A stretch of 63,293 bases of DNA, the filler included, from Bonamia ostreae (taxonomy: Eukaryota): NCBI GenBank assembly GCA_040357525.1. It is 28 parts of 28 records of this genome, joined end to end, with 100 filler letters (N's around TTAATTAATTAA, not from the genome) between each part and the next. Parts side by side here need not be neighbours in the genome. Positions count along the whole stretch, not along the records: positions 4,572 to 6,755 come from JBDODL010000992.1; positions 6,856 to 9,038 come from JBDODL010000993.1; positions 9,139 to 11,319 come from JBDODL010000994.1; positions 11,420 to 13,596 come from JBDODL010000995.1; positions 13,697 to 15,869 come from JBDODL010000996.1; positions 15,970 to 18,142 come from JBDODL010000997.1; positions 18,243 to 20,412 come from JBDODL010000998.1; positions 20,513 to 22,681 come from JBDODL010000999.1; 20 more parts are not named here. One strand, written 5' to 3'. Of this stretch, positions 4,597 through 63,293 are shown piece by piece. Each line of letters begins with the position of its first letter. The stretch's first letter is position 1. Under the pieces are notes generated by a model. The model made no database searches. It was given only the letters and a program-made list of their open reading frames with translations, and was not told the origin of the DNA. The position numbers were made by a program, and so were the translations under genes.

Positions 4597-5009
4597 ATTA
4601 CGAAATCTGTTTTGGTCATCCATATATGGCTCCAAATGTCGATATGAATTCTGTTTTAAATTGTTTCGACGCAATTAAGAATTCAATTTGCTATATTTTG
4701 TGTCAGAAAAATTTTCATATTATTGGTAACAATCCAACATGCGTAATTCAATCGCTGACGGGGATCTATAGATGGACTTCTGATTATTCTTGTCAAATTA
4801 ACGAACCCATCGAAAAAGTTTAATTCTTATATTGTCAGGATGCTAACCATAGAATATATATGATCTATGTGATGTGTGGATTGGCGGGATCGACAGGCGT
4901 TATTGCATCGATAGTAAGGTTAATAAAAAGCAACACAGATTGGTTTTACGAAGAGGACGATTCGTTTTACAACTTTTCAAAAGAAAATCTTATTTCCTCA
5001 TTTGAATAA
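4597..5009 (+). CDS. 3' part of a hypothetical single-pass membrane protein with a Cys-containing ectodomain (one 21-nt intron)
   Basis: ORF 4626-4823 continues after removing GTTTAATTCTTATATTGTCAG (4818-4838) into DANHRIYMIYVMCGLAGSTGVIASIVRLIK...FE* (TAA 5007-5009). Hydrophobic segment near the C-terminus. No family recognised. Confidence 0.5.
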
Positions 5010-5120
5010 ACATTTTTAAAAATTTTCAAATTGAGAATGATTGTTTGTCGTTTTATTTTCAAAGTTTTCATCGATAAAATGTAAATTGCTTTTTGCCGAT
5101 TTTAAATAAAATTTAAAAAA

Positions 5121-5192
5121 TGCGCCAACGGGGAATCGAACCCCGGCCGGCTGATTGGAAGTCAGCAATCATAACCATTAGACTATTGGCGC
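5121..5192 (-). tRNA. tRNA-Gly(TCC), eukaryotic type
   Basis: Minus strand reads GCGCCAA...GCTGA-CTTCCAA-TCAGC...GGTTCGATTCC...TTGGCGC-A: full cloverleaf, anticodon TCC, no encoded CCA, followed immediately by TTTTTT (Pol III terminator). Confidence 0.96.
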
Positions 5193-5209
5193 TTACTGAA
5201 TACAAAAAT

Positions 5210-6110
5210 TTATGTTTTATATTTTTGTTCCAAATAGTCCAAAAAATTATTTGAACTTTTGTTTCGTTTTCTTTTTATCATTTCCGATAATTTTTTCATA
5301 TCGTCGTTCGCTTTTCTTTTTCTCGATTTTTTAGGTTTTTTCGAAATGGCTTTGTTCCTTTTAGATTTGATTATTCTAAACTTTGTTTTGTCAAAAATCG
5401 TCTTAAATTTTTTGTTTTTCAGTTTTCCAGATTTAAAATTCTTTTCAATTATTTGCACAAATCGTTCTGCGTCCTCTTCTTCGCAACTCAAAGGGACATA
5501 ATCAAACAGTCTTTTTATGATTAGCAAACAACTTTATAAAATTTCCTTGAACCAATTCAATGTAATGAAGAACATCGTTTTCTTCTTCTTTCGATTTTTT
5601 GTACGTTTTCTTTAATTTTGTGTTGAGAAAAATAGTTAAAACAGCATATTCGTCAATATCTTTTTCAGTCACTTTCTTAAATTCGTCTCGAAAATATTGA
5701 TAAGCGTCGTTAAAAGAGTCAAATTCCAGTTTTTCGAAATCGGTTTTACCAGTTTTGTCGTAAATTCTGCGTTTTTTGGGATCCGCCAAAATTGATTTTA
5801 TTTTTACTAAAAGTTGGAAATCTTCTTTCGTTCCTTTTTTGCTTTTATCCGGATGCAATTTTAGTGCCAATGATCTAAATGCTTTAATTTTTTTTAATTT
5901 TTGATAATTTTCATGTCTCTGCAAAAATTTTATTATTAACGAAATTGATCAAATATTCAACAACAAAATTTTTTAATTTAGAATTTTAAATTTTGACAAA
6001 AAATTTTTTAAAATTTAGCTTTAAATTTTGCCTTTTAAAATATCGCTGTTATTTGCATTTTTTTGCAATCCCAAAATTTCGTAGAAATCTTTCGATTTGT
6101 CTAAAAACAT
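5210..6110 (-). CDS. DNAJC9: J-domain co-chaperone, DNAJC9-like (231 aa after removing introns 5882-6031 GC-AG, 5610-5642, 5511-5532)
   Basis: Spliced product [39 protein letters not shown]...DIDEYAKTYKKSKEEENDV...FLDYLEQKYKT. HPD motif plus the YKxSxEExxD and LExKY segments typical of DNAJC9. Spliced length 696 nt. Confidence 0.85.
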
Positions 6111-6958: not shown

Positions 6959-7818
6959 CTAAAAACATTTGTCACATTCCCTAGCAGGAACACATTCTTT
7001 CAAATCGTCACTCTCTTCACAATCGATCTGTTTGCAAATCCACCTTCTGTGATACGGAACTGATACCAAGTAAAACTCCTTTCCATAAACTATTGCAAAC
7101 CTCGCTGCAGTCGTCGCTTCTGACATTAATTCCAACGACTTCTCCATTTTCATTCATCGAAAAAGACGATTTTGTCATTGAACACTTTTCGTAATCTGAA
7201 AAATTCGCTTTCAAGCAGATATTCTCTTTGAAGAGATGCTTGTTTTCACAATTTATCAACGTGGATTCTCCGTACATCAACTTCAAATGCTTTTTTCTTC
7301 CCGGCGCTCCCCAATAAAAAATGTCGTTTTTGTCGCCTAATTTTAATAGATAAACCGAATCCGTACGTGCTCGCTATCTTTGCTTTACGGTGGTAACAAT
7401 CAGGGTCTATGCGCAAAAGAGCAAGATCGTAGTTCATTTTGTCACTGTCGTTTGTTCCGTCTAAAGGATAGTCGGGGTGTAACATGACTTGGTGCACATT
7501 GGAAGATTGGGATTCTTCCGCTCTTAAGATAAAAAAGGTTACAGCAAAGGGCGGAACAAGTCTGTTCTTCCGACAGAAACGCCGACGTAACCGATGTTCT
7601 GACTTTATCTTAAAAACCTTTTTGGAAACGCATGAAGCAGTAGTTAAAACCCATTCTTTGTTTAAAAGTATTCCCGAGCAAATGAAGGAGCCGTACGTGT
7701 CGAATAGAATAGCTAACGAAGCCGTTTTACAGGTTTGGCCGCATGCTTTGTCGATTACTTCTGTAAACGAGACGCGGAACATGAAAAAAAGGAAGATTTT
7801 GTGTATAAAAACAGACAT
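6959..7818 (-). CDS. Secreted trypsin-fold serine protease homologue, predicted non-catalytic (259 aa; introns 7599-7617, 7523-7542, 7337-7355, 7079-7100)
   Basis: Signal-peptide-like N-terminus; FICSGILLNKEWVLTTASC, VSVGRTDL, VMLHPDY, YDLALLRI, FYWG, GEVVGINV..DC and YLVSVPYHRRWI follow the S1A scaffold in order. The His site reads TASC and the GDSGG site reads CSMTKSS. Confidence 0.82.
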
Positions 7819-11419: not shown

Positions 11420-13559
11420 GACTGCAAACTTTGGCAACGTCTGTTGATCTTCTCCAGAAACATCAAGAATTCCAGATTTGAGATAAAGTTGGCCATTTTA
11501 GAAAAACTGCACAAATTTTTGTACGCGAAAAGTGGTCTAATTTCCGATCTTGCTTTGTCCAATGATGAAACTGACGCGATCACGGTAATTTTAATAACGA
11601 AATTCAAAGACAAAAACTTCAATATCGGTAACAATGCAAAGCCTGTTGCGTTGTAACGAAAACGATTTGATCGTGGAAGCGGCTGGAAAATGCATCGGAG
11701 CACTTGGCGCTTACTCTCCTTCGATGCTGTTTTTGAAAGAGGGAAACGTGTGCAATGGCGACGACGAAAAAGCAGATTCGCTTGAGATCGAATGCACGTT
11801 CGAATTCTTACTTCTGCAAATTCTGGACAGATTTTTGACGAAAGCGCTGTTACAAAGCCCAAACAGGAATTTGCTTATTAACGTGCGCGAGTTTTTGGAT
11901 GTTCTGGCCATTAATCTCAACAGAATCAAAGTCGAAAATGTTTCGCTAAATGATAAAAAGGTGAAAAGAAAAAGGACGAAGCAAACAGAAAAATGGTCCG
12001 CTTTGAGTAAATTAAGCAGAGACGCCCTAAAAACACACAAATCAAATTTGTTGCCCAAAATAAGCACTCGGAAATCAAAAATCGCTTCTGGCGACAATGA
12101 AAATTTTTTATCGCAAAACGATTCTTTTGAATCGCACAATCAAAATGAAAATTTTATAAGTTTTTATTGTCAAAATTTATTCGAAGCAAAATTTTGCTTT
12201 TAAAGCGATTAGAAAGACAATTTTGCGATTTTTCATTTTCGCAATTTTTCGAACAATTTATTTTTTGCAAATTTGCCAAATTTCGCCAATTTGAATTCAA
12301 AAGAATTCGAAGAAGAGAAAACGATATTCCAGAAAAGCCCAAATTATGAAATTTGGATTTGCTCTTTTTGTCTGCAAATACTCGATTTCCTGCAAAACTT
12401 TCTGCCAAAGAATATTCAAAAAATCAATTGGATTTTAGCCCTGAAAAATTTGCTCAGAAACTCGACTTTGCCACATAAAAATTTGTCCAACATCGCCTCT
12501 TTCGCTTTGCCCAAAATCTTCTTCGACCTAATTAAAGAAAGCGACGACGATTTTGTAATTTTCAAAATAAAACGGGAAATCTTTTCCGTCTTAAATCTTC
12601 TCTCGAGAGATTCCGCCGATAGCAAATCCTGCAAAACGCGCCGATGCGTTTCGGCGCTGTTCGATCTCTTCCGGAAACTGGAGAACTGGACTGAAGTCAA
12701 TTCCACAAAAAGAGACTTCGCTTCCGACAAAATTAAAACGGCGCTCTCGCGAATCTTCGATTCCGGTTTCTCTCTTTTGCCACACGCGGCCATCCTCTGC
12801 AAAGCGTACCCCGAAGCGCTCAGACTCATCGAGAGAAGTCGCCGCTTGGAAAGCGACCCGAAGCCGCAGATTTGGGATCTGCTGCACAAGTGCTACGGAA
12901 AACAAGGCGAGATCGAGATGGTTTCGGCGGTCGAGAGAAGCGGGAAGTTTCTGTCTCTGCACAAAACCGCCCGCGGCTACGAACTGCGGGGGCAATGGCT
13001 GGACGCCATTAACAGATATGAACAGTTGTTGCAGGAAAACGGCAATTGTGGCAAAAGTCGGAAAGGCTTGTTGCGCTGTTTGGTCAAAATGGGCCATTTC
13101 CGGTCGGTCTTGAAACAGATAAAAGGGGAAAACGCCAAAATGTCTGAAGCGAAAAACTTTGATTGGGGCGTTTACAAATATGGCGTTCAAGCCGCGTGGA
13201 GGTTGCAACAATGGGAGGAGCTGAAGGAATTGGTTACTAGAACGAAGGGCGCTCAGATAAACAACTTTGAATATTCGGTGGGAAAAATTTTGTCTGCGGC
13301 GACGGCGAGAAGTGACATCGTCGCGTCCTTGTTGCGGAATAGCAGGTTGGAGGAGATGAGACAAGCGCAAAACCTCTTTTCGCAAAGTTACCAAAGAGCG
13401 TATGCGCACGTTTCAAGAATGGCGATGCTTCACGAGTTGGAGCAGATATGCGCATTCGAAGACGAAAATCGCGTTTTCGAACATAAAGTGGAAATAATGG
13501 ACAAAGATTTTGTGTTCAAAGAGCCTTTGTTGTCTTTGCGGCGAGTCTTTTATGGACTG
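11420..13559 (+). CDS. ATR: PIKK kinase ATR/Mec1, internal fragment (HEAT region plus FAT domain)
   Basis: AAILCKAYPEALRLIE...LHKCYG...YELRGQWLDAINRYEQ...GLLRCL..MGH...GVQAAWRLQQWEEL...SYQRAYAHVSRMAMLHELEQ matches the ATR FAT domain. 25-nt intron 11585-11609. A further intron near 12160 has an ambiguous acceptor. Confidence 0.82.
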
Positions 13560-16426: not shown

Positions 16427-17878
16427 AAAATAAATTTTGACGAAAACGTGAAAGCAAAAGGAATCAATTTGGTTGACAAAATTCAACACGGAATAAAAAT
16501 TTCGTTAATTAAAGATAAAAAGAAAAATGACATCAACGGTCGATATTATTTTTTTCTCGCCGACTCCGACGAAAACAGCTTCCAATTCCAAAACTGTTAA
16601 TTTTATATACAATTTTTTCGACAAAATTCAGAAAAAAATTTAGTCAATATAAAAAATTTCAGCTAAAAAATTTAGTCAAGTTACTTTAAAATAACAGACG
16701 CACCAAGTTACTTCCACAAAATAAGAAGCCTTTACGGAATAAATGAAAACAAATATCTGGACGCAATCTGTAATAAAGAACTTTTGGGCGGCGAAAAAAA
16801 TAACGCCGGAAAAAGCGGTCAAATTTTCTGGCGCACTCAAAATCAAGAATTTGTGATTAAAACAGTGACACAGAAAGAAGCAACATTTTTACAGAGCAAT
16901 CTGAAAATTTATATCGAACATTTGGAAAATAATCCGCATTCGCTGATTTCGAGGTTGAAAATAAAAATTTTGCAAAAGGCTAAATTTTAAATAATTTTGA
17001 CAAAAAGATTTTTTGGATTGCACAAAATAAAAGTCGACAGATTGAGATTGCGCTTTGTCGTAATGAACAATGTTTTCAGCACTTGCAAAATTCCGCCTCA
17101 ACTTATTTATGATTTAAAAGTTTTTTTTATAAAATAAAAAGGGGACGACCGAAGATCGATTAGTTAAACAAAGTTCAAAGTTGAAAAAACAACCGATTTT
17201 AAAGGATTTGAATTTTGCGGATCGATTTATTTTAGTTTCGAAACAAATGGTTTAGACACAAAATTGTTTGATCGAAAACTAAATTTTAATTTAAAACAAA
17301 AAAATTGGGAAAAACAAAATTTTTAAAATAAGTCAAAATCGCTTTTGTTCCAAATCAAAAACGACGTAAATTTCTTCTTAAAAGTCGGAGTGATGGACTA
17401 TTCTCTATTGCTCGGAGTGTGCGTAAAGTTTCATCGAAATTTAATTTTTAGAAATGAAGAAAACTCGGAAGTTTTATCTGTCGATACTGAAATTGATGTC
17501 TTTGCTCCACTGAAATATAATCAACATTTTGCTTCAAGTCACATCGTTTTTTATCAAAATTATTTTCACTTTTTATTTCATTTCTTCAAAATTCGTTTTA
17601 CAAATTTTCATATTGATTTTTAAAATAAGTCGAAAGCGTCAGTTTTTGAGAGCGGGATAAAAGGACCTTTGGGGGAAACATATTTTTTGGGAATAATAGA
17701 TTTTCTGCAAGAATGGACGAAGAAAAAGAAAATGGCCAATGTCTTCAAAACGTGTGCTTTTTGTGATTGCCAACAAAACAAAATCGATTCTGTTCCTCCC
17801 GTCAAATATGCCGAACGGTTCCAGGAATATCTTGATTCAAAGATCAAAAATACCGTTTTTGGAAAATTTTTATTTTAA
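16427..17878 (+). CDS. Phosphatidylinositol phosphate kinase (PIP5K family), catalytic domain, multi-exon
   Basis: FQNYAPSYFHKIR, GKSGQIFW, FVIKT, FFGLH, FVVMNNVF, YDLK|GT (22-nt intron 17120-17141), ILKDLNF, VMDYSLLLG, YFLGIIDFLQ and SVPPVKYAERF. Confidence 0.93.
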
Positions 17879-20512: not shown

Positions 20513-22405
20513 TTCGAATCGTCATTGGAATCTTCTTTCAAATCTTTGTTCGTTTTACCATCTGAATCTTTCGTCTGTTTTTGGGGTTTTCTGTCTGGAA
20601 GCCAGACTAGTATCATTAAAATCAAGATTATAAAATGAATTAATTGCCAATATCCAAAAGTTAGAATCCAATCTAAAAACCACATTGAAGGGTATAGAAT
20701 CATCATACTTTTGTTACAAAAAATTATTTTTGCAAATTTACAATTTTAGGATCATTTTATGCCAAATTTGTTATTCTGAAAAGCAAATTTTAAAAAATTG
20801 TTAGTTCCAAAATTTGAAATAAAAGTATTAAAAACAAGTTGAGTACGGCTTCAATCATGTTCTTTAAAAGAGAAAAGCACAATATGAGAAAAAGAATATT
20901 GAGGTACCATGAATAGAATCCAACAACAATTCCCTTTTCTTTTTTCTCAGCTTTTGGGATTTTTTCAAAATGTTCCAATGTGGCAATTAGCTCAACAAAG
21001 CAGACACCCGTGACGAATATATCCATTCCGTACACAACCAAACTTATAATTACGGAAGGGGACAATAGTTTGTCCAGAATTTGTTTATTAAATGTGAGAC
21101 TATAGTAGACGACATTAACCGTGAAATATATCAATCCAAAAGCGTAAATGAGCCCTTTTTTAGTTTTTTGTTTTTTGGATTTCCTTACACCGTATCCAAT
21201 GCAAACGAAACATATCATAACGCGACTGTTTGATGATTATTATAAAACGTTGTTGTTTGCGCAAGAGCGTGAATTGAATTGCAAACCAAATAAAACAAAA
21301 AATTGTGCAAACCAGTGTTGTTTATGTAATGTAAGTCTATGAATTTCAAATGTAAATTTGCTGTTTCAACAAATTAGAGAATGTAAAAGTTTTAAATTCT
21401 AAAAACTAAAATTTTTAAAACCAAAATTCCCAATTTGCAAAAATTAAATTCGATTTTTTAACTTTAATTTGCAAAATTTTGTATTCCAAAATTACGAATG
21501 TGTAACAATTTGGCGAAAAGTTTAATTTTCTCCAAAAAATTATTATAATTTAATTTGCAAAATTTTGTATTCCAAAATTACGAATGTGTAACAATTTGGC
21601 GAAAAGTTTTAAATTATAAAAATTGCAAATTTACAAAAGAATGCAATAAATTTCTATTAAAAACATCCCACATTAATGGCGATATCGCTAACAGTGATGA
21701 ATATTATAATTGTGAGGATATAATGCTTTTTCCTCAAATACTTTAATTTGATAAATAAACTTTTTTGTAAGTGACAACATTGACCACCCAATACATGAGC
21801 AAGACCATGTGAGCAATGAAGAGGTAGTAATAAACTTTCAAGTAATGAATTTTCTTGCCCCCGAGCAACCCGAACGAGTTTTCATAAATCACGGATCCTT
21901 TGTTTTTAAAATTCAAACCTTTCACGTGGATTTCGGTGGAGCAGGTCAGGAAGAACGCTTTGTAATCACCGGAAGTTTCAACGTATAAAGTCCCTGTCAA
22001 AGACCCAGATCTTTCGTTCTTCTCGTCGGGACGAGGAGAATAGAGGACCGGTTTTATCACTATGCCATCATCGTCATACAGCACTTTGGTGTGACATGAC
22101 TTTGGCCATGTCATTATGAAAGGGTTTTCTACCAACTGCGATCGTTATAAATAAACCCGTGCGCGCGCTGCTATGACTAGATAAGTGGGTTTGTTCGCGT
22201 AGTAAGATTTCGTGTACACGGTCAAATTGTAATTTATTTTCGGGCGGTCAAATCCCGGCGGGCCCGAGTCCAACTGGTAAATCGAGTGGTAGTTCATCCC
22301 GTGCACTTCGTTGTATGCGGTGTAACGTGTGTTCAAGAAAAATTCTTTGTCGGCCCGAACGACAAACGTTGTAGCCATTAAGAAAATGAGGGAAATATAT
22401 GCCAT
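20513..22405 (-). CDS. GOST-family seven-transmembrane protein (TMEM87/GPR107-like), runs off the contig at the 3' end
   Basis: Signal peptide, lumenal domain ending YENSFGLLGG...LKVYYYL, then RVMICFVCIGYGVRK and WQLIHFIILILMILVWLP. Introns 22136-22156 (21 nt), 21741-21760 (20 nt), 21226-21248 (23 nt) and one long repeat-containing intron. Confidence 0.82.
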
Positions 22406-27403: not shown

Positions 27404-27890
27404 GAGAAGAGGATTGACAGAAATAACTTGTTCGACAAAATTTTTCGAAGCCGCGCTTTTCCTAGATTTGGCAAGATGCGAAATGCAGCACTTCGCTGAC
27501 TCCGTCTTTCCCGCTCCACTTTCTCCACAAATTATTATCGATTGGTTTTCACTCGTGGCTCGCAAATTATTCAATGCTCTTGACGCAATTTGGTAACAAT
27601 GCGGATTCGTTGAAGGGGGTTCTTTTCTATACGTTGCCATCACCTTGTCGCCGTAAAGCGATTCGATCCAGACGTACGGGTTAATCGACAACAGAATGCT
27701 ACCTTTGAAGTGTGGGATTTAATAAACCGATGTTGGTGTAGACACTTTTCTTTTCAAAGCGCACTTTGAGATTATGGATGACATTATCCTCTTCCAAATA
27801 AAGAAGAGTGGTCATGTCGGGCACCCCATCCATTTCAGGAGGGTTTGCGTTAAAATCTTTTTTGTCAGGCAAACGCTCAGAAAAGTTTAT
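27404..27890 (-). CDS. Myosin motor domain, N-terminal exons (start codon not resolved)
   Basis: DGVPDMTTLLYLEEDNVIHNLKVRF...VYTNIG|SILLSINPY (25-nt intron 27703-27727), PHCYQIA, NQSIIICGESGAGKTESAK, NPLL. Confidence 0.95.
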
Positions 27891-28395: not shown

Positions 28396-29484
28396 ATGCT
28401 TTCAACTGTAAATAATAAACGCAAATTCTGCACATCGATTCCTGACATATTCTACATTAGACCATTCAAACTTAAAAAATGGATTCTCGGAACTAAACTT
28501 TTCATTGTGACAACAGTCGGAGCCATTTCATATTCAGCTTATAAAAAGTCCGAATACATAAAAACGATGCAAAACAGCAAAAGCCAAGAACAAAACGAAA
28601 AAGCTTTTTTGGGCGAAATAATGGATTTGTTTATAATCGCTCCTCATAAAGCAAAAGAGCTTAACGGGCAAGAAATGCTCTTAAACGCCCTTAAAAACGA
28701 TAATTTGGATTCGAGTTTTAAGCTCAAAATCTATGACGCACTAAATTTATATTCGTTAAATTACAAAGTTTAATTGAAAGTAAACAATTAGTTTACAGAA
28801 ACACAAATGAAATCATTGATTAATGTTTCATCCAAATTGATTGATGAACAAAAAAACAGCAAAATTGATTCTTTAAATGCAATTTACAAAACATATCAAA
28901 TATTCAAAACACAACATTTTCCTTTTATACTTAACAAATCTCAACACATTTTGAATATTTTCAAAAGCTTGAAAAACAAAGTTCCGGATTTCGAGTCTAA
29001 ATTTATGAGATTTAAGGAATTTGATTATTTTATGACGCTTTATTACAAAGATTTCAAACAGGAATTTATTGACAGATGTTTTTTTTAATATTTTAGCGAA
29101 ATTTGGATTGTTTTACGGATTTGTATGGAGCGCAATGAGGCATTTTTTCGATAACAGAAGTTTTGTTTTGCGGCATACAACAACAGTTCTCACGCGAAGT
29201 TTGATTTTGGGATGTATTTCGGCGCCGGCGGGATTAATAGCTTTTTTAGCAAATCAGATTTTAGACGAAAATTATTTTAATCGGTTATCAAGAAAAATTG
29301 ACAAATGGCTAATTAACAAAAATGTCGATTCTACTATTTCAACGTCTTTGTCCCAGATTCCGTCTTTTTTGAAAATTAGCATTTTGTTGTTCTTTGTGAA
29401 CAGATACATCGCTCCTTTTTCTAACGCTGCTTTTTTCGCTTCTTTTGTTTTCTTTGAACCTTTCAAAAAGAGATTGGCGGATGC
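28396..29484 (+). CDS. Hypothetical membrane protein, possibly mitochondrion-targeted (introns 28768-28791, 29078-29096)
   Basis: Three consecutive ORFs joined in frame by 24-nt and 19-nt GT-AG introns. Basic N-terminus poor in acidic residues; several hydrophobic segments. Confidence 0.6.
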
Positions 29485-30037: not shown

Positions 30038-30804
30038 ATGGCTTTTTTATTTCCGATAAACAACATGAACTATTTGCCATTTTTAATAACAAATTTTCTG
30101 AGAATATTTTCATCGGGATTTCTTTTCGGTGTGCCAAAGAACAGAATCTCGCGAAGCAGAGGACGAATAAGAAGACATTACAGAAGAGTCGCCAAAGGGC
30201 CGAAACCAACGCCATATCGAATTTGCCCAACGTGCGATCAACCTGTTCGCCTTCATTACATTTGCATGAATTGCTACCAGTTTTCAACTTGAACAAAAGC
30301 GCCAATAACAAAAAATCGGAAACGATTTATAAACGCGGCGTCAACGAAACAAACAAAATTTACAAATTCGACAGCAAAATTTTTGCCAAGAAAAACAGCG
30401 AAAAATCGCTAAAACTTGCACATAAAGTCAACACGACGAAAAACAGCGAAAAAATATCTGAAAATGCTCTTGACGTTGACGGAAACAATAAAACATCGAA
30501 GGTAACTCAGCTTTTTTATTACAAACCGGCAAAATATCATTTCGACCCGCCGAAAACAGAAAAAGCAGATCCGTTCCAAATAAAAAGAATATACAAAGCC
30601 AAGAAGAAAAGATTGTCAGATTTGAGAAGCGAACGCGTTGAGACCATCCTTAAACAAGAAGAACATGACAAAAGAAAGAATACCGAAGAATATCAAAACA
30701 AGACCACCGATTACAAAGATAGAAATAGGCACCATTTCATTAAAAAAATCGAGGAAAACGTTCAAAATATTCTTAAACAAAATGACAAGGAAATAAGTAA
30801 ATAA
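30038..30804 (+). CDS. MRPL32: Mitochondrial ribosomal protein bL32m with a predicted long C-terminal extension (20-nt intron 30280-30299; 248 aa)
   Basis: GVPKNRISRSRGRIRR...CPTC...HYICMNC zinc ribbon. Removing GTTTTCAACTTGAACAAAAG joins ORF 30038 to ORF 30223-30804 in frame. Confidence 0.8.
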
Positions 30805-31220: not shown

Positions 31221-31716
31221 ATGGTCGTTACAAATAATAAAAAACGAAAAAGAGTGAGTTTTGCAGTCAAAGAAAGCGTTGAACTCAAAAAAGAGACATT
31301 TCTCGAAAAAACAGCGAATTTTCAAAAACTCGTTTTAAATTCAATTCTAAGCAATCAAAAAATCTATTTGTCTCAAATTACGGATTGCTAGCTTCCAAAG
31401 ATAAAACAAGTTTGGACCTTTATAAAAACTTGATCATTTCAAACGAATATGAAATGGTCAAAAAACAAACCGAAACAGATGAAAAATTAAAGAGCAAATC
31501 TAAAAAAATGGAAGTCAAAATAAACAGCGCAAAAAATGGAAAGAAAAAAGACCTTAAAAAAGGGGAAACCGATTTGTCTGTAAAATTGTTCAACAACAAA
31601 AAATCGGACATTCTTTCAAGTCTAAATTCCGACTACAAAAAGATAATTCCCGCGGAATTTAGAAAATCGGCTCAACAGATTGCACTTGAAAATCAACGAG
31701 TCGTGAAACCGCAATG
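31221..31716 (+). CDS. PLRG1: Spliceosomal NTC protein PLRG1/Prp46, N-terminal part (20-nt intron 31332-31351)
   Basis: Ends at VKPQW followed by a donor, matching the KPxWHxPWKL motif that precedes the WD40 repeats. SKNLFVSNYG and NEYE resemble the PLRG1 N-terminus. The WD40 part is not in the contig. Confidence 0.62.
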
Positions 31717-36499: not shown

Positions 36500-38527
36500 G
36501 TCGAAGAAAATTTGTACGGAGAAGTGATAACGTGGGCACAATTTGTATCCTCGAATTTTGATAACCTGGAATCGCTAATTGACGTTATTAACGACTCTTT
36601 TGACGTTTTTATAAAATTAAATTTTTTCGAAAAAATTTAATTTTAACAAAAAAAGTTTGTATATTCAAAATATTTGCCAGAAGAACTATTTGAAAAACTG
36701 AAAATTAAGTTAAAAACAGAAACGGCCAAAATAACAGAAAAATTTTACCGAAATTTATCCAAACTACAAAGCGAAAATTTTTTATCAAATTTGGATCACA
36801 AAGCGAAAATTTTTGTTCCTAACTTTATGAACGATCGAAAATCGACAAATTTTGAAATTTTTGTTTTTTTCGAAAATGTCAGTATCAAAAATTTGATTTT
36901 TGCAGTCAAAAATAAAACAGCAATCGAAAATATTGTAAAATTGCACTGTTTTTCCAAATTGTTGAAATCTTTGAAACATCTAAATTTTATCAAATTCGAA
37001 AAATTGGCTGAATTGCCATTGTTTTCAATTCCAAATGTTTTGGACAAATTTTGTTTAACAAAACAAAAAAAATTGGCCGAAACAGCAAAATCTCGAATTA
37101 AACTGTTTTTCGATTTAATTTGGGTTTCGTTGTCCCAAAACAACTCAAATTCGCTAAAAAACGATTATTGGACCAATTGGCTAAATTTCCGCCTCAAAAA
37201 CATTTCTGAAAATGCCCAAATTTTAAATTTGGTCTTTTTGTCAAAAATTATTTCATTAAATTCGGAGAAAACTGCAACGAACAAAAATGAACATTTTGCC
37301 ATTTTTCGCAAAAAATTAGAAAAATCGCACAATAAAATGTTAAATAAAAGTCCGAACAATGTTAAAGCTTTGAAATCCGAAAAAGCTTTAACGACGAAAA
37401 CAAATTTGTTAAAATCGCTTTCGATTTTTACAAAAAAACAAAACGATTTCAAATTGCCGACATTTTACAAACACGTCCAAAAGCCATTTTTGCCAAATTT
37501 AAAGTTTAGCAAAATTGAATGCGAAAATTTTGTGAACGCAAATTTCCAAATTTCCAAAATTGACAAAGAGCGAAAAGACGTTTATTCGGACAGATCCGCA
37601 AAGCTAAAATTTTTTCGAGAATTGCAAAACTTTTCAAAATTTGGCGATTTTCGTTTTTTCAAAACAATTAATAACAAAAAATTAGCCGAATTAGAAAAAG
37701 TCAAAATTCCGGAAAATATGAAAATTTTGGCCAAATTTAAAAATTATGCAAATTCGATTTTCTTTAAAGCGACAAAAAAATTTTCCGATTTGGTCGAAAA
37801 TTTTAGTTCAAAAAATGTCGAAAAAACTAAAAAATATTGTCGATTTTGGGCTGATTTTTGTCTAAATTTTATGCAAAATTGCTTAAAAATAATTTATTGT
37901 TTAAATTCGATGGTACAAAATTTGGAAAATGACGATATTGAAAGATTTTTAAAAAATGCTTCCGAATTTTTATTTTTCCGAAATTTGCTCATTTTTGAAT
38001 TGCCGAACCGTTTTTTTATTTTGACAATATTTTAAAAATTAGAAAAAGAGAGAATTCTGGAAAAGAACGGCGACGAAATAATGCTCAAAAATTTTTACCG
38101 AATGAAAACAGTTTTTATCGAAACAACTCTAATTTACGCCATTGGAAAACAATCAAAATTTTCGGACTTTTACAATTTTAAAAGCAATATATCAGATAAA
38201 CATATAAAACAAAAATCCGATTTATTGCAACAAATTGTAACGAAAAACGGCAAAACTGAGTATTCGCCGATTTTAGAGAAATTGCTCAATTTTAGCAAAA
38301 ATTTAAATTGTATCGAAACAAGATTAAGCTCAAAAGAAAAAATCCGAAACAAATTGCAAAAAGAAATTTTAGTAAATTTGATTTTGTTTTATGGATTGTT
38401 GCCATTAAATGACAAAAACCCGTTTGAAAAATATGAAATCGGACTTTCAATATATCAAAGTTTGTTAAAAGAATTGGAAAAGGAAATTTATTTTAGATCA
38501 AATTTGCGTTATTTGGATTTATTGGAC
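36500..38527 (+). CDS. Large AT-rich hypothetical protein, internal fragment
   Basis: 453-aa and 164-aa ORFs in tandem on one strand in very AT-rich sequence, too long to be chance. No motif recognised. Confidence 0.6.
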
Positions 38528-41745: not shown

Positions 41746-41777
41746 GACTATTATTATTTGCTTAATGATGTAGTTGA

Positions 41778-43039: not shown

Positions 43040-43203
43040 NNNNNNNNNNNNNNNNNNNNNNNNNNNNNNNNNNNNNNNNNNNNTTAATTAATTAANNNNN
43101 NNNNNNNNNNNNNNNNNNNNNNNNNNNNNNNNNNNNNNNTTTTTTTAATATTAATAATTATTGTTGCAAAAAATTTGTCTTTTTAACAAATAATCGCAAA
43201 AAC

Positions 43204-43608: not shown

Positions 43609-43794
43609 TTTTATCGAAAAGAGCTCAAATTATAACAAAATCCGATAACCAAATTTAATCGAAAAGAAACCAAATATATCAAAATCCGATAACCAAAATT
43701 TTATCGAAAAATTTTAACAGATTTACTAATTTCATCTGCACATTTTTAAGCTCTTAACAAAATAAAAAGCTCGTAGATTTTCAGACTGCATTTA

Positions 43795-50017: not shown

Positions 50018-51623
50018 ATGGCGAAAAAGCGCCAAAACAAAAAGGCTTCTAAAGAGGACAAAGATGATAAAGAACTGGACGCCATTATGGATTTTCTTAA
50101 CGATTCTTCAGCTCCCGCGAAAACTGAACAACAGAATAAGAGCAAAACTAAAAATATTAACTCAAAAAAACCTCAAAACGCAAATCCGCCTAAAAACAAA
50201 GCAAAAAGCGCTATTGCTTTAAAACTACAACAAGTTTAACAATTTTTCAAAATTAAAAAGAGAAAGAAATTAATCGAGAAACAGCGTAAAAAACAATTGG
50301 AATTGGAATTAGAACGACAAAAAAAAGAACAGGCCATAAAAGAAGAAGAGGAACGAATTGAAAACGAAAGAAAAGAAGAATTGAAAAGAAAAAAACGTTT
50401 TTATAGCAAATTTAAGAATTGAAGAAAGAAAAAATCGAGAAAGCCAAAAAAGAAGGCACTTATTTGACCCCAAAACAACTCAAAAAGAAACAAGCTGCAC
50501 AAATAGCGAAAGAACAGTTCATCTCTGCTGGAATGTTGAAAGATAAAACTGTTCCTATTAAAAAACAAGTTTTTATAATTTGGCCAATTTTGACAAATCG
50601 AAAAATTATGTTTTTGTAATTTGGCCAATTTTGACAAATCGAAAAATTATGTTTTAATAATTTGGCCAATTTTGACAAATCGAAAAATTATGTTTTTATA
50701 ATTTGGCCAATTTTGTCAAATCGAAAAATTATGTTTTTGTAATTTGGCCAATTTTGTCAAATCGAAAAATTATGTTTTAATAATTGGACCAATTTTGACA
50801 AACTGAAAAAATTTTGCGTTCAAAGGCGAAAAAGAAAAAAGCAAAGAAAAAATTCATTAAAGCGGAACAGTTGATTAACGAAGAGCAGATTGCCAAAGAA
50901 AAGATTATCGAAGTGGCAGCTGATTCGGACAAAAACGACTCCGAACAATCCGTTGAATCAATAAGCAATTGGGAAAACGTTACAAGCGAGTCCGAGTCCA
51001 ACGGTTCTGAACAAGTTTTGGAAAGCAAAGAAACCCCTTTACTAAACACTAAAACGACCGCAGATAACGAAACGAGTGAAATTTATAAAACGGTCCCAAA
51101 CGGCGCAAAGAAATTTATAAAAAAGGACTTAAAGCGCGATAAAACAAAAACCAAAGAAAATAAACTTCGTTCACCAATTTGCTGTGTTCTGGGGCACGTC
51201 GACACCGGCAAGACAAAACTGCTCGACAAAATGAGAAGCACTTCGGTTCAAGACAACGAGGTCGGAGGGATAACCCAACAAATCGGCGCCTCTTTTTTCC
51301 CGCAAAATTTCATCGCAGCTGCGGCCAAAAAGTTGGAAGCGGCCGGACTGGAGCCTCTCAGCTGTAAAGTTCCGGGGCTTCTCGTCATCGACACTCCTGG
51401 CCACGAATCCTTTTCCAATTTGCGGAAAAGAGGGTCCAATCTTTGTGATATTGCCGTTTTGGTAGTCGACATAATGCACGGAGTCGAACCGCAAACGCGC
51501 GAGTCTCTGCGATTGCTGCGTTCTAAAAAGACGCCTTTTGTCGTGGCACTAAACAAAATAGACAAAATCTACGAATGGGAAGCCCATCCTGGCGAGCCTT
51601 TTGTCGTTTCAATCCTTAAACAA
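50018..51623 (+). CDS. EIF5B: Translation initiation factor eIF5B, 5' part (introns 50234-50260, 50397-50416, 50569-50825)
   Basis: [59 protein letters not shown]; charged N-terminus with EGTYLTPKQ. Confidence 0.97.
50569..50813 (+). repeat. 41-bp tandem repeat, 6 copies, filling an eIF5B intron
   Basis: GTTTTTATAATTTGGCCAATTTTGACAAATCGAAAAATTAT starts at 50569, 50610, 50651, 50692, 50733 and 50774; the last copy is degenerate. Confidence 0.97.
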
Positions 51624-52149: not shown

Positions 52150-54290
52150 AAATCGTCAAAAAACGTTTTTTCTTTGTTACCAAACTTTCCCGGGAACGAA
52201 ATATTAACATAATCCGATTTGACCAAAAAATGATTTAGCGATCGGTTCGAAAAAGCAAATTTCCGCTCGAAGAAATCGGTCTGCAGAAAAATATCTCTTT
52301 TTTCGATTCCGTTAAACTGGATTTTCACCAAAAGACTTTCTGTTCCTCCGCAAACGCAAATTTCATTTTCGCCTTTCGATAATTTGAATTGCCGCTCAAA
52401 AGTGTAAAGAGTTTTAAAGTCTTCACTGAATCGATCGTAAAAATCGTCTTTTGGATATCGTCTCTTTTATGTTGTAACAATAAAAAACTTTGTTGTTTTC
52501 CATTAACAAAATAAAGTTTCTAGTGATTTCTTTGGAAAGTCGACTCGATATTCTGTCTCTGTTAAGCTCAATAAATTTGAAAATGTTTTCAAAAGAAACA
52601 GTGCACAATAAATCGGACTTTTATTTAATTATTTAAACGTTTTCGGAATTTTCGTTGTTCGAAATCGAATTATTAAATCTCTTAAAAAAGAGGAAAATTA
52701 TTTCTTCGGAAATTTCAAATTTGGCTTTGCCCAAAATGTCTTCGAAGATTTCGTAAAATAATTTGATTTGCAATTTTTTTCTTGTTTTTTTTTAATTGGA
52801 TAAATTTAAAAAATTGGCTAAATTTTTTAAAATTGGCTAAATTTTCTGTGATTTTTGTTTATTAAAACTCCATTTTTTCGACGATATTAAAAGCGATTTT
52901 GGCTAATTTTTGGTCAGTCAAAATTTCAAAAATGGGTCGAAGAGCATTTTCGAAACCACAAAAATCGTTTTTAATTGCCATTTTTTCAGTGCACTGCAGA
53001 AATCTTTTTAGACTTTTTTCCAATAAAATTTTGTTTTCCAGAAATATTTCGATGATATTTTTTCTCGTCGTTGCTGATATTTTAGATTCCAACAAAGTCA
53101 TCTTTTTTTAAACAAATTTTAATAAGAAAAATAAAACAACAAAAAAATAAAACAATTTGAAAAAACAAATTTAATAAAAAATAAAACAATTTGAAAAAAA
53201 ATTTAATAACAAAAAAAACAAGTACTTCAGAAAGTTTCTGAACAAAATCTTCAATATTTTCTTTTGTAGATTGATCGCTATTTGAAAGAACTGTCAAATT
53301 TAGCGAAACGGATTTTAAAAGCAAATTCAAAATTTCTTCTTTTTTGGCATTTTTTTCGTTTAAAGTTTCTATCAGTAACATTGAAAGAGACAATATCTTC
53401 AATGTGTTGAACGGATTGCTGTAACAAAAATCCATTTTTCTGGGCAAATCGAGATTTTGTTTTCCCGTTAAATGACTGTTTTTTGTACAAAATGTGTCTA
53501 AAAACTTTAATTTGAGAAAAAAAAACTTTCAGAACATCAATTACCAAATCTTCAATTTGCAAATTCTCTAAATCGATAAAATCGGTTTTTGGCCGAACGG
53601 GGTTTCTGAAAACGGAAATTTTGTTGTTAATTGCGTCGTACAACAAAATTTGATTGTTGTCATTATCAAAACATCCATCTGTTACTATCTTCTCGGCTTC
53701 GAAATCGCTGAAGCCGACGAAGGACATATCTTTTATTCTTACAAATTTGACGCTTGATTTTTCTTGTTGATATGTATATGAGGAGTTGGGGTATATCAAA
53801 CAGATATGTGTGTCTTCAATGTTAATTTTTGTTTTTTCTCGGTCAAAAATATTTAAAAATTTTTGAGACTGAAAATTGCATTTTTATTTTTTTGACCAAA
53901 AATATTAGAATTTTGTGGACAAAATCACAATCCAAAATTGCAATTTATAAGAAAATCAACCTGTTGCAAACAACTTAATATCCTCCAAAAATAAGACTTT
54001 TTTCGATAAATTAGCACCTGTTTCTAGTCGCCTCAATTTCATTTGTCTCATTGTACTCTTTTCAATCATTTTCATTTCTCGGAAATCACAAAAATATTTT
54101 TTTAAGCTAACGCCTTTCATTGTTATCATTTCTTTTTTGTATGCTTCTTCGATTTGTGCACTTGAAATCTGGTCGAAATCAATTAATCTTTGGTCGTTTT
54201 TTTGTGCGTACCAGAGAACTGGGTTTCCAGTGTTTTTCTTATAAACGTTTTTTGTTTTTTTGTTGTATTTTGGGTCTTTTTAAATTTTAA
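52150..54290 (-). CDS. Large multi-exon protein fragment containing a WWE-like domain
   Basis: Exon ~53962-54240 reads VLWYAQKNDQRLIDFDQISSAQIEEAYKK...YFCDFREMKMIEKSTMRQMKLRR (WWE pattern; missed by the ORF track). Further same-strand ORFs run down to 52150. Confidence 0.6.
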
Positions 54291-58043: not shown

Positions 58044-58680
58044 ATGGGTGAAAAACCGAGCGAAATGGAAGAATGCCTCAAACTCTGCAATTTGCTGCAA
58101 AGCAAACCTGAAGCCGAAGCTTTTTTAAGTCCGGTCGACTGGAAAGCTTTAAATCTCCCAGATTATCCTCAGATCATAAAACAGCCAATGGATTTGGGCA
58201 CAATCGAAGTTTCTAAAAATTTTACGTTCGAAACAAAAAGAAAAACCTGAAACAAAACGTTTACAAAGACTCGCACGAATTTTCGAAGGACATGCGATTG
58301 ATCTGGAAAAACGCAAAAACATACAATCAAGAAGGATCCGGAATTTACGTCGTAGCGCACGTTTTAAAAAACCAAACCAACAGCAATTGGAAGGTTTGTT
58401 CGAAAAACGCTTCGCGAACATTCACAAGTCGGCCACGAAAAAACGCGAATCGACGCAAAAAGAAAGGGAGATTTTCACAACTCTCGTCAAACAACTTACG
58501 GCCGAGCAACTGGGATTAGTAGTTGAGATGATTGAGCTGAAATGCCCGCAAGCGTTGAGTGAGGGCGGTCAGGACGACCTTGAAATTGAGGTTTATGACA
58601 TTGACGGAGAGTCGATGGAAAAACTGAACGATCTTGTAAAGAAGTGCGTAGAGGAGAACGCCCAAACTGTAAAGGAATAA
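58044..58680 (+). CDS. Minimal BET-like protein: single bromodomain plus ET domain (193 aa; introns 58209-58240, 58361-58383)
   Basis: FLSPVDWKALNLPDYPQIIKQPMDLGTIE, DMRLIWKNAKTYN, then LTAEQLGLVVEMI...DDLEIEVYDID...L (NET/ET pattern). Spliced length 582 nt. Confidence 0.92.
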
Positions 58681-59300: not shown

Positions 59301-59615
59301 TATTAGAAACAGCAAAAAAGAAACAAATTAATTATTGAGAAAGAAAAAAATTGGCTTTTCAAAAAAACGAGGATTCAAAAATTAGGCTTTCTATTCGAAC
59401 CATAAATTAAAAAATACATGAAAAAAGTAAAATTTGAAATGGCGTGTTTTAAATTTTTTCATCATAAGTCAACAGAACCGATATTATAGTTTTAAAAATC
59501 GCTTATTCGAATCAACTAAAAAATAAACGTTGTCGTTTTAGCGTTAAGCAAATCAATATATTATTGACAAACCTATTATATACCAAATTCGCAACTCCGC
59601 AATCGAAAAGCCAAA

Positions 59616-61000
59616 ATGTCTGTAAATTTAAAACACTTCAATTTCACTCTTTCACACAGTTCAGCAGAGAACGAAAAACAGCGGAAAAATAAAATTGCAT
59701 CTGAAAGAAACAAAGAATTTCTAAAAGACCAAATAGACCTCAATTCCCCAAAAATTAGCGAATTCCAAAAAATGAGACTTGTTATCCAACATTTCGACAA
59801 TGTTAAACAATTTAAACCCGGTTATATCGGAAAAGAAGTTCTTATTATTTTTAGTAAAATTTTAGAAAATAACAATTGAAAAATAAAATTTGAAAAAAAG
59901 AGAAAAAAGAAATTGGAACAACTGATAAACGCCGCAACACAATTTTCCGATGACTACAATTTCCAATACCGTTTTTTGATCATCGCATTGCGCCTTTCTA
60001 TGCTAGAAAACAATCTCGCCGATCTCAATATTCTAAAACTCGTTTAAACAAAATTTTCATAAAAAGGCGGTAAAAGCGTTTAAAAAATTTAGCCACGAAG
60101 AAATCATTTTTAGCACAGCAATAGAATTACTGCATTCCCAAAGCAAAATTCTGAATTTACGTAAATACATTTTAATTGTAGGCGAAAATTGCGAGGACTA
60201 TTTTTTTAATTGCGTACTCGATTCCGTAACAAAGTACCCGCGGATCGACCAGCATCTTCTTTTGAAATGTTATGAAATCCTGATTGTTCTGTTCGATAGA
60301 AAATGTCTCGATTTGCCTGTGGATTCAAAATGGTGCAAATTTTACTTTTTGCGCACTTTTTCAATTTTTTTTAAGATTTTAATCATTTTTTTTTGAATTT
60401 CAAAAAATTGAAATTCGGCATTTTCGATTTGTTATTAAATATAACGTGTAAAGGTTGGTAGAAAACGGAACAAATTGTTTGATATTATCAAGGAATTGGG
60501 CAAAATCGACTAACCAGACCAACACTTATCACTTTATCCATTTTCTGCTAATCCTCTCTCGTCATAAACAATTTTTGCCATTTTTAAGCTCTAAGCTTAA
60601 ACTACTTTTAGACGGATTCGGCGACTTTCTTTTAGAAATCTTGAATCTGTTTGAAAACATGTTAAATGTTTCGGATCCAGGCGTTTTCCCCGAAAACTCG
60701 GATGAATTTTTAAAGGCGATGACTCACATTTTGCTGTTTCTTGTTATTTTAAATATTGTTGACGGATAAAAACGTGAAAATAGTTTTATTAAAATCGGCA
60801 ATTTTGAGATAAAAATTTCAAAAAAAAAGTTGCAATGCAAGCAGAGCTGAAATTTTTATCAAAACTATAACTCTTTTCCTGCGATGTTATCCTATTTTTA
60901 ACGAAAAGCTGACCGAAGAAAATTTCATTAAGCGATTAATTTCTATTGTTAAACTTCACTTCGACCGAAAGTTGATTTTGCCGGTTTTTAATCAAAATTT
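59616..61000 (+). CDS. Hypothetical multi-exon helical-repeat-like protein (end approximate)
   Basis: Leu-rich exons joined in frame by short introns (60042-60066, 25 nt; 60161-60181, 21 nt). No family recognised. Confidence 0.5.
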
Positions 61001-61562
61001 AAAATTGTCCTTTGGATAAAATAATCAAAATTTAAAATTGTCGTTTNNNNNNNNNNNNNNNNNNNNNNNNNNNNNNNNNNNNNNNNNNNNTTAATTAATT
61101 AANNNNNNNNNNNNNNNNNNNNNNNNNNNNNNNNNNNNNNNNNNNNTAATAACCAGAAAATCTTTCCGGTTTATTCAGAATCGAAACAGAGCACTGAGGA
61201 CATCTTAAAGCTTTAGATCTGCTGTTAGAGTTTCCCATGTAATAAATCTGTGTTTCTTATACCACGATACTATAAAAACAAACACTAACGTTCCGTCATA
61301 GAAATTTAAAGCTTTTCGGATATTATACAAAATTAAAGTTAACAAAATATAAAGTTGATCAATTCCGGAAATAACAAAATTAAACTGCAATTTTCAATTT
61401 TTCATTTGCGCCATTAACGTTGTAATATCGCAAACTATAAAAACAGTTTTTGTAAAAACAAAATAAAAAACGTTTCTTATATTACAATTTCAGATTATAA
61501 TAAAATCTATAATAAAATCTATAATAACAACTATATTAAAAACAAACCGAAAAATCTATAAA

Positions 61563-63293
61563 ATGTGCGTATGTCGATCTGAAGATGTGTTTTCGCGTGT
61601 TCAGAAATTCTTTGTGTTTCCTTCCAAATACGTCCCCCCTATTCTCGGAATTTGCTTTGGAATTGGTTTTGGATTTGTTTTCAGAAATCTCGGTATTCCA
61701 AGTTTTCTGCTTTTTATAAAATAAATGTCTATTCTTCTATATTTCTGGGCAAAACAACCTTAAAAATTTGCCAATTTGATTGACATAAGTAAAAAGAATA
61801 TTTGTATTTTGGACAAAATAATATTTAAAATTTAAAAGACGATGCTATAACTCTGATTCAATTGATTGGTGATCTGTACTTTAACGGATTGAAAGCAGTT
61901 ATGTTGTTATATCTGTTTGTCTCGATGGTACTCAATTCGATTAAAATTGCTTCAGAAAAAAATGCTTGTAGTCTCATGATCATTGTTTAACTTTTAAGCA
62001 TTAGTTTAATTGTAACAAAAACTTGTGACAATTTGTAACAACATTTAAAAACAAGTAAAACTAATTGTAGTAACAAGAAATATAAACAATTTTTGCTAAC
62101 AATAAAAGACTCTATTGTCATTCACAACTGGCACTATACTCACCAGCCTGATGGGAATTGGAGCGATGAAGGTAGTAGAACCATATATAACAAAAGCAGA
62201 TACTTCAAATATTCAATACAAACATGCTGAAAGTGACATTACCAAAACACTCGAACAACTTTTCAACAAATTTTTGCCTTCAAATTACGTCGCAGCAATG
62301 AGTCAAAACAATATTCCAGGGACCCTTGTTTTCGGAATGTGTTTTGGAATGTTTGCAGCCGGGGTCATCAAATCGAGAATGCAAAAAGATAAAAAAAACT
62401 ATATGCAAGACATTTTAGAGCTCACAGAGAAGTCTTTAATGCGAATTGTTGATTTTTTGATACTTGTAACAGCTGTTGGAGTGTTTTCTATTATTGCTAG
62501 TCAAACACTTTCTTTGAAAAACATCGATGTCCTTAGGAAATTGCTGATCTTTCTTATTCCTTATGTTATCTGTTTGTTGTTATAATATTTAAATTTTATG
62601 TTTCATATTATAAATTCATGAAGGCAACTTGTTATTGACATATGTACTCACGCCGCTTATATTTTGCTTTTCCCGGGGAAATAGATTCGCGGGCTTAAAA
62701 AAGTATGCTTATTCGACTTGTATTGGCTTCATAACTTCAAGTGGGGTTGCATCACTTAACCCGAATGCAAAGTTTTTAGTTAATCCCTTAAACCAATTAT
62801 CGTTGAATAAAGTTTGACCAAATGTTTATTAAAATTAGAGTTGTTGAAGAATTTGATGTGCCGGAAAATAAGTCTAAATTCCTTCTTACGTTGGCATTGA
62901 TGTTTGAAACTAACGGTTCGTGTTTGTACATTGTAATGCTGATGACATTTGTATCCAAAGTGTATGATATTCCATTTCCTTTACCAAAAAGACTTTTATT
63001 GGCGTTTATAATCAATTTTATTTGCTTGTCGTTACCTCCAATTCCGTATGGAACAGTTCTTTATTTTCCAATGGTCGGAAGCTTCTTTGACGTCAATATA
63101 CCACTTGAAATAATGTCGCTTTTGATAATGTGGGACATCGTTTTGGATCGTTTCGTTACAGTTTTTAAATCAGCACTTAAACCTGTTCAAAAACTAAATT
63201 CTGTTACCATTTTTAATCATGTGCATGACAAAAAAAGATGTCGAATATCGGTCCGGATGCTGGAGCAGTGATATTAGTACACAAACTTCACAT
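61563..63293 (+). CDS. Dicarboxylate/amino acid:cation symporter (DAACS/SLC1 family), divergent, multi-exon, runs off the window end
   Basis: GICFGIGFG, LIGDLYFNGLKAV, LPSNYVAAM..NNIPGTLVF, GFITSSGVASL (HP1), FETNGSCLY (TM7), WDIVLDRFVT|MSNIGPD (TM8, after intron 63161-63237). Confidence 0.88.

Follow-up and report, generated by a model that had tools for sequence, protein, structure and literature searches.

By what signals are the introns of Bonamia ostreae, a rhizarian parasite of oysters and a haplosporidian, recognized? The usual donor is GTAAGT; an atypical donor consensus is rare, and Entamoeba provides the clearest case so far of a core small nuclear RNA (snRNA) changing alongside it. 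An earlier note on a stretch of the B. ostreae genome had reconstructed 35 introns, most of them tiny, with mostly GTT donors lacking a conserved G at position +5, with mostly AAG acceptors and with no polypyrimidine tract. Here we analyse the same window, 63,293 bases of assembly GCA_040357525.1, which is not a single locus: it is made of 28 whole contigs sorted by length, from 2,187 down to 2,147 bp, separated by spacers in which a 12-base six-frame stop is flanked by 44 N on each side (2188–2287, then every ~2270 nt), across which features are not to be read. On the evidence of 43 curated introns, these are very probably genuine GT-AG spliceosomal introns of a haplosporidian nuclear genome with a lineage-specific donor grammar, GTTT(T/A).

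Construction of the intron set

The curated set (n = 43; Table 1) has three tiers. Tier A holds 18 introns with protein-level support, tier B holds 22 introns predicted by a gene finder with coding support on either side of the intron (weak in two of the 22), and tier C holds three introns proposed in the earlier note only. The gene finder chained open reading frames (ORFs) by codon-usage log-odds, comparing an in-frame with an out-of-frame model; its sole splice rule was GT...AG, at 15–70 nt in the first version and 15–130 nt in the later one. In its raw output, before any filtering, GTT donors made up 29 of 38 introns in the first version and 35 of 42 in the later version (17 of 20 and 19 of 21, respectively, at lengths of up to 35 nt). 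The gene finder recovered 30 of the 43 curated introns. Its sensitivity is low where genes are very AT-rich, the later version recovering one of the seven introns of the annotated protein P0121 described below, and it fills a single long intron (contig 12) with spurious chains of ‘introns’ of 46–128 nt.

Donor, acceptor and length of the introns

The donor carries the clearest signal. GTT opens 39 of the 43 introns, while it accounts for 0.488 of all GT dinucleotides with their following base in the same contigs (p 7e-9), and GTTT opens 34 of the 43 against a background of 0.253 (p 2e-13); the remaining donors are GTA (3/43) and GTG (1/43). The preference is the same where the junctions are fixed by protein evidence, GTT being found in 16 of the 18 tier A introns (p 5e-4) and GTTT in 13 (p 4e-5). 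Other GT dinucleotides within 40 nt of the donors serve as local decoys: 46 of 99 of them (0.465) are GTT, compared with 38 of 42 donors in a 42-intron version of the set (Fisher p 5e-7). The donor signal thus surpasses AT-richness and is not a by-product of it. G is found at +5 in a single intron of 43; T or A stands at +5 and +6, with T at +6 in 24 of 43, and no base is favoured at the end of the exon. This makes the donor a real and strong motif, GTTT(T/A), lying wholly within the intron and having no exon-side consensus. The U1-complementary consensus GTRAGT is not followed, given T at +3 in 39, T at +4 in 34 and G at +5 in one of the 43 introns, and none of the 43 donor octamers begins with GTATCC, as a U12-type donor would.

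The acceptor is less distinctive. AAG is the commonest form, as had been claimed (27/43, with TAG in nine and CAG in seven, hence a pyrimidine at −3 in 16 of 43), but its excess is modest and mostly a matter of composition, combined with loss of the preference for a pyrimidine that is usual at this position, since AAG already makes up 0.448 of all NAG (p 0.013). GAG acceptors are absent from the 43 introns against a background of 0.19. The acceptor is best described as AG preceded by any base at −3 except G (A > T ~ C), in A-rich sequence. A polypyrimidine tract was not found in the 43 introns, where pyrimidines make up 49%, and A 45%, of the 14 nt that precede −3, in agreement with the earlier note. 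A is enriched at −8 (30/43 against 0.42, p 2.5e-4, or ~0.003 when corrected for 12 positions). The branch motifs CTAA, CTRAY and TTRAY are not enriched in the 43 introns, and TTAA is marginal, being reached by 28 of 500 shuffles.

Lengths range from 19 to 338 nt. In 28 of the 43 introns the length is 19–33 nt, mostly 19–25, and the other 15, of 44–338 nt, follow the same grammar; in tier A nine of 18 introns are 33 nt or shorter. Tiny size is thus the commonest state, not the sole one, and 19 nt is the floor seen here. The count of 30 tiny introns in 35 given in the earlier note overstates the uniformity; repairing frames by eye made that set lean towards tiny introns. Lengths fall evenly into the three classes modulo three (14 each).

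Protein evidence for intron boundaries

Removal of the intron restores a continuous conserved protein in 18 cases, with support from hidden Markov models (HMMs), homologs or an annotated protein. The largest contribution comes from a gene for phosphatidylinositol-4-phosphate 5-kinase (PIP5K). All 407 of the 407 residues of NCBI protein P0121, ‘Phosphatidylinositol-4-phosphate 5-kinase, partial [Bonamia ostreae]’, map exactly on contig 8 across seven GT-AG introns, whose lengths and acceptors are listed in order in Table 1 and whose donors are all GTT. RNA-seq was used to train the annotation to which the P0121 model belongs (PMC11069148). The match identifies contig 8 directly as B. ostreae, and the other intron-bearing contigs are treated as belonging to the same species. 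Compared with the zebrafish PIP5K structure (PDB 4tz7), the spliced product aligns over residues 50–351, with no gap at two junctions, residues 142 and 179; the latter, produced by intron 17120–17141, falls within the conserved DLK|G motif. There are six equivalent placements for the 22-nt removal at this motif, and just one of them is GT-AG.

Between the PIP5K introns of 83 and 84 nt a 23-nt stretch is common, with 91% identity, across the acceptor junctions (17319–17341 and 17616–17638, + strand); the resemblance may have arisen by chance, the DNA being AT-rich, or may be left over from duplication of an intron.

Collinear ORFs matching successive segments of one HMM (intervals in Table 1) place introns in the DnaJC9-like, myosin, bromodomain/BET and COX15 genes and in the formin gene, where the ORF pieces match FH2 and a homolog search for formin gave no match. 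In the G-alpha gene of contig 12, two ORFs match the homolog HMM on either side of what is then a single intron of 338 nt.

In the trypsin-like gene the 19-nt intron at 7599 and the 20-nt intron at 7523 compensate each other, and a single ORF reads through both; a database search with this ORF returned the unspliced 178-residue ORF (P0122) and distant multi-domain homologs only. Cutting out both introns raised the median phmmer score over 42 homologs from 40 to 58 bits, and the gene with all three introns removed outscored removal of the third intron only for 36 of the 42. The third intron, at 7337, brought no gain in homology, and its basis is the open downstream frame. The trypsin-like protein itself (7000–7830, − strand) has Ser in place of the catalytic His of the TAAHC motif and has no GDSGG motif; judged from these residues, it seems to be a protease homolog that has lost catalytic activity.

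Nine of the 35 introns in the earlier note, those named by coordinate, were checked individually. All nine are GT..AG introns of the length given there, on the coding strand, and eight are supported. Among the eight are the DLK|G intron, which is exactly an intron of P0121, the compensating pair of the trypsin-like gene, and the introns at 7337, 31332 and 50397, which were recovered independently by the gene finder. The ninth, at 30280, is doubtful: the ORF upstream encodes ribosomal protein bL32 (HMM 2–47 of 56), and a stop codon four codons on may be its end.

One gene did not conform. In the SDF transporter gene of contig 28 no GT-AG junctions fitting the frames were found (62582–62834, + strand), where exons matching HMM positions 68–216 and 263–371 flank a middle exon; the cause may be a fault in the assembly, an intron of non-canonical type or a micro-exon that was overlooked.

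Table 1. Curated introns in the window, with splice-site trinucleotides, gene and supporting evidence (tiers as defined in the text)
Position	Strand	Length and ends	Gene	Tier and evidence
5511..5532	−	22 nt, GTT..AAG	DnaJC9-like	A: flanking ORFs HTH_DNAJC9 1–27, 23–58; gene finder
7599..7617	−	19 nt, GTT..CAG	trypsin-like	A: homolog scores rise when removed with 7523–7542
7523..7542	−	20 nt, GTA..AAG	trypsin-like	A: homolog scores rise when removed with 7599–7617
7337..7355	−	19 nt, GTT..TAG	trypsin-like	B: frame change to open C-terminal frame; gene finder
11585..11609	+	25 nt, GTA..AAG	ATR/FAT kinase	B: gene finder
12160..12216	+	57 nt, GTT..AAG	ATR/FAT kinase	B: gene finder, flanks 56 + 82 bits
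15573..15598	+	26 nt, GTA..TAG		B, weak: 11 + 15 bits
16596..16697	+	102 nt, GTT..CAG	PIP5K	A: P0121 exact mapping
16954..17007	+	54 nt, GTT..AAG	PIP5K	A: P0121; ungapped against PDB 4tz7
17120..17141	+	22 nt, GTT..AAG	PIP5K, in DLK|G	A: P0121; ungapped against PDB 4tz7
17250..17332	+	83 nt, GTT..AAG	PIP5K	A: P0121
17428..17451	+	24 nt, GTT..TAG	PIP5K	A: P0121
17546..17629	+	84 nt, GTT..AAG	PIP5K	A: P0121
17855..17973	+	119 nt, GTT..TAG	PIP5K	A: P0121
21741..21760	−	20 nt, GTT..AAG		C: earlier note; frame change seen
22136..22156	−	21 nt, GTT..CAG		B: gene finder, 25 + 35 bits
25654..25991	+	338 nt, GTT..AAG	G-alpha	A: G-alpha HMM 23–147, 149–355
27703..27727	−	25 nt, GTT..AAG	myosin	A: Myosin_head 2–35, 31–135
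28768..28791	+	24 nt, GTT..TAG		B: multiple of three, contains stop codons
29078..29096	+	19 nt, GTT..TAG		C: earlier note; frame change to long open frame
30280..30299	+	20 nt, GTT..AAG; possible intron, doubtful		C: earlier note; upstream bL32 may end nearby
31332..31351	+	20 nt, GTT..AAG		B: gene finder
33301..33350	−	50 nt, GTT..CAG		B: gene finder, 10 + 29 bits
35564..35596	−	33 nt, GTT..AAG	formin	B: gene finder
35378..35408	−	31 nt, GTT..AAG	formin	B: gene finder; 37-nt alternative ends at 35372
35171..35214	−	44 nt, GTT..TAG	formin	A: FH2 114–172 then 171–233
34968..34992	−	25 nt, GTT..AAG	formin	A: FH2 171–233 then 242–287
34847..34915	−	69 nt, GTG..CAG	formin	A: FH2 collinearity; boundary less sure
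34711..34739	−	29 nt, GTT..CAG	formin	A: FH2 242–287 then 277–339
34484..34505	−	22 nt, GTT..AAG	formin	B: gene finder; later version picks other last intron
36605..36655	+	51 nt, GTT..AAG		B: gene finder
38010..38042	+	33 nt, GTT..TAG		B: gene finder, 81 + 44 bits
50234..50260	+	27 nt, GTT..AAG		B: gene finder
50397..50416	+	20 nt, GTT..AAG		B: gene finder
53505..53526	−	22 nt, GTT..AAG	LMBR1-like	B: gene finder
53102..53153	−	52 nt, GTT..AAG	LMBR1-like	B: gene finder; later version picks 124-nt alternative
52781..52868	−	88 nt, GTT..AAG		B: gene finder, later version
52618..52638	−	21 nt, GTT..AAG		B, weak: downstream support 8 bits
57158..57323	−	166 nt, GTT..TAG	COX15	A: COX15 HMM 32–126 then 124–208
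58209..58240	+	32 nt, GTT..AAG	bromodomain/BET	A: Bromodomain 1–43 then 43–82
58361..58383	+	23 nt, GTT..CAG	bromodomain/BET	B: gene finder
59838..59900	+	63 nt, GTT..AAG		B: gene finder
60042..60066	+	25 nt, GTT..AAG		B: gene finder

Weighing of the evidence and alternative explanations

Several facts weigh against reading the set as introns with a grammar of their own. The curated set was filtered by hand, with 23 gene-finder introns discarded: those in contigs 8 and 12 contradicted by P0121 or HMM evidence, two within the unbroken 723-residue ORF of contig 9, one in bacterial contig 19, weak long ones in contigs 4, 7, 14, 22, 24 and 28, and alternative ends of two formin introns. Conversely, 13 of the 43 introns were sourced from P0121, HMM evidence or the earlier note and not from the gene finder. 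All 43 introns start with GT and end with AG, which was a condition of our search and of the public annotation, and exact boundaries were always set on that assumption. Swapping GT or AG for other dinucleotides does not single out GT-AG: between 12 and 51 supported ‘introns’ appear under every rule (35 under GT-AG), a scan that is non-discriminating, since frame breaks can be bridged under any of the rules. Reads over contig 16 (seven introns) gave almost no cover and no junctions (one 193-nt contig within the last exon in run X4, nothing in run X7), a result that bears on splicing neither way. The AAG preference, as said, lies barely above composition. The genome paper, in its available text, terms the introns of B. 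ostreae ‘canonical’ (PMC11069148). Finally, no splicing factor was found in the window, and searches for snRNAs there found none, whether judged by Rfam gathering scores or with the limit relaxed to E<=1, the sole RNA gene being a tRNA-Gly; the steps that involve U1, U6, U2AF and the branch point are all inference.

Some of these facts invite the view that the GTT/AAG pattern is an artefact of AT-richness combined with freedom in placing boundaries, the introns being ordinary or having ends that are off by a few bases. GTT already makes up 49% of GTN and AAG 45% of NAG in these contigs, the gene finder can bridge frame breaks under almost any dinucleotide rule, and the AAG excess is weak. We nevertheless consider this view very unlikely, given the excess of GTTT over background and of GTT over nearby decoys, the agreement of the protein-fixed junctions, and the DLK|G site, where one placement in six is GT-AG. 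It is scarcely credible, too, that the frame breaks are indel errors of assembly or pseudogene decay in a low-coverage draft. The contigs are indeed short (~2.15 kb), the assembly is fragmented and most of the inferred introns alter the frame; yet errors are not expected to come as blocks of 19–338 nt that start with GTTT and end with AG, 14 of the 43 lengths are divisible by three, and removal of the introns restores conserved motifs exactly. The earlier note had also suggested that the T-rich 5′ half of an intron pairs with the A-rich 3′ half in a hairpin that juxtaposes the splice sites. The asymmetry is real (in introns of up to 35 nt, T makes up 56% of the 5′ half and A 49% of the 3′ half) and a few weak folds exist, such as those of the introns at 15573 (−1.7 kcal/mol) and 28768 (−2.4 kcal/mol), but the two halves form no fold. 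For the 28 introns of up to 35 nt the minimum free energy is zero in 19, and its mean, −0.375 kcal/mol, is not below that of composition-preserving shuffles (−0.43 kcal/mol, z +0.34), 184 of 300 of which are as low or lower. Pairing between the first and last thirds is no higher than in shuffled sequence, 25 of 100 shuffles having at least as much, and shuffling within halves gave the same outcome. The hairpin is thus extremely improbable.

A further alternative accepts the grammar as real and keeps the snRNAs unchanged: standard U1 would tolerate the mismatches, as with the GUAUGU donors of yeast and Giardia, and proteins together with the short length would guide recognition. Several lineages with atypical donors retain standard U1, according to the available text of bioRxiv 10.1101/2022.06.08.495308. 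By comparison of the sequences, GUUU(U/A) would mismatch standard U1 at +3, +4 and +5 and would have no exon-side pairing, probably a poorer fit than in those lineages. We regard this alternative as possible and somewhat unlikely.

Gene content of the window

Per-contig G+C content is 25–43%. A profile search of the window ORFs gave Pfam matches that are eukaryotic for most contigs: DnaJC9, IscA, a trypsin-like protein and G-alpha in contigs 3–4, and elsewhere ATR/FAT kinase, RabGAP, an EF-Tu-type GTPase, an S4-domain protein, PIP5K, a second G-alpha, formin FH2, COX15, LMBR1, WWE, BET, myosin, an SDF transporter, a bromodomain and bL32. Among named proteins, those that match the G-alpha ORF best (48–59% identity) are of protist and fungal kind: ‘G-protein subunit alpha 8’ of dictyostelids and chytrids, and proteins of Cercozoa sp. 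M6MM and Plasmodiophora. Animal Gi, Gs and Gq do not appear among these best matches. On this G-alpha type and on the species named for P0121, a dicyemid origin, considered in view of the link with molluscs, was rejected. The sequencing runs that contain contigs 13–16 include an RNA run labelled mollusc metagenome, in keeping with a parasite of molluscs.

Contig 19 (40884–43039), which is AT-rich, carries an ECF-type sigma-70 factor with Sigma70_r2 and r4 domains (ORF 41158–41781, − strand) and looks like a bacterial contig among protist ones, from contamination or a symbiont. Contigs 9 (18243–20412) and 20 (43140–45293), with a G+C fraction of 0.42–0.43, have long unbroken ORFs without convincing introns and may or may not come from the same organism; the 723-residue ORF of contig 9 matches no Pfam family, and contig 20 encodes a RabGAP of 389 residues. 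The tRNA-Gly(TCC) gene (5121–5192, − strand) lies immediately downstream of the DnaJC9-like gene in contig 3. COX15, for haem A synthesis (56825–57608, − strand), and bL32, presumably mitochondrial (30029–30289, + strand), fit a respiring mitochondrion, in contrast to the mitosome of the related mikrocytids.

Comparison with known systems and a possible mechanism

A literature search that covered few subscription journals found no description of this grammar for Bonamia or any haplosporidian. According to the available text of PMC11069148, B. ostreae has ~2 introns per mRNA, in an annotation trained on published RNA-seq. Public gene models already contain the introns implicitly, and the grammar appears to be undescribed. 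Drastically reduced intron numbers and sizes are reported for Ascetosporea (PMC13746701, 2026, in the part available).

The closest precedent is Entamoeba, whose donors are GUUUGU and whose U1 has changed to ACAAAC (5′-AACAAAC-3′), as stated in the available part of bioRxiv 10.1101/2022.06.08.495308. In both systems a parasite with a reduced, AT-rich genome has short introns whose donors carry U at +3 and +4, and the donor consensus is strict and unpairable with standard U1. They differ in that +5 is G in 97–98% of Entamoeba introns, by the same source, and in one of 43 here, and in that T at +6, as in the GUUUGU type, is found in just 24 of the 43. Entamoeba is an amoebozoan and Bonamia a rhizarian, and the origin is therefore independent.

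The mikrocytids (Mikrocytos mackini, Paramikrocytos canceri) belong to the same class, Ascetosporea, and also have extremely short introns. Their introns are all 16 or 17 nt long with conserved sequence, 224 in M. mackini, and their spliceosome is reduced: of the snRNAs only U2, U4 and U6 were found, U1 and U5 not, in the available text of PMC10245619. The fixed length and low number differ from the 19–338 nt seen here and the two or so introns per mRNA in PMC11069148. Myxobolid myxozoans and Dicyema japonicum, as described in the part of PMC13644364 available, have median introns of 22–27 nt with a ‘GTa’ donor, a bare AG and upstream A residues taken as branch points. A residues upstream of AG and the lack of a pyrimidine tract are found here too, whereas the donor differs, with T at +3 in 39 of 43 and A in three, in a longer and stronger motif. 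Chlorarachniophyte nucleomorph introns (18–21 nt) and heterotrich ciliate introns (15–16 nt), as quoted in PMC10245619, are of a comparable size class; their length ranges are narrow, unlike the long tail here.

A remodelled spliceosome in Bonamia, as the earlier note had proposed, is plausible by analogy with these systems. The donor might be read by a U1 snRNA that, like the U1 of Entamoeba, has an altered 5′ end, here one complementary to GUUU(U/A); alternatively U6/U5/Prp8 might read it with no part played by U1, a route suggested by the related mikrocytids. The A close to −8 could be the branch point, with the first AG downstream of it used as the acceptor; neither a pyrimidine tract nor binding of the U2AF65 type would then be needed. 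It is possible, and we propose it tentatively, that haplosporidians are a second independent lineage of co-evolution between donor and spliceosome, with U1 either matched to GUUU(U/A) or lost and the donor read by U6/U5/Prp8, with a branch A ~8 nt from the AG replacing tract and U2AF65, and with Bonamia intermediate between ordinary rhizarian introns and the 16–17 nt introns of mikrocytids. The proposal is reasonable and specific enough for test.

Introns as short as 19 nt in a rhizarian parasite, with GTTT as donor and neither a +5 G nor a tract, offer an independent test of the co-evolution of splice signals and snRNAs, and they would show the lower size limit compatible with variable intron length. 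In practice, gene finders and spliced aligners that apply a default minimum intron size and a GTRAGT/YAG model will annotate genes wrongly in this oyster pathogen of economic importance, as exemplified by the database protein for the trypsin-like gene, which is an unspliced ORF. Such mis-annotation bears on the published gene counts of B. ostreae and on the diagnostic and comparative work built on them.

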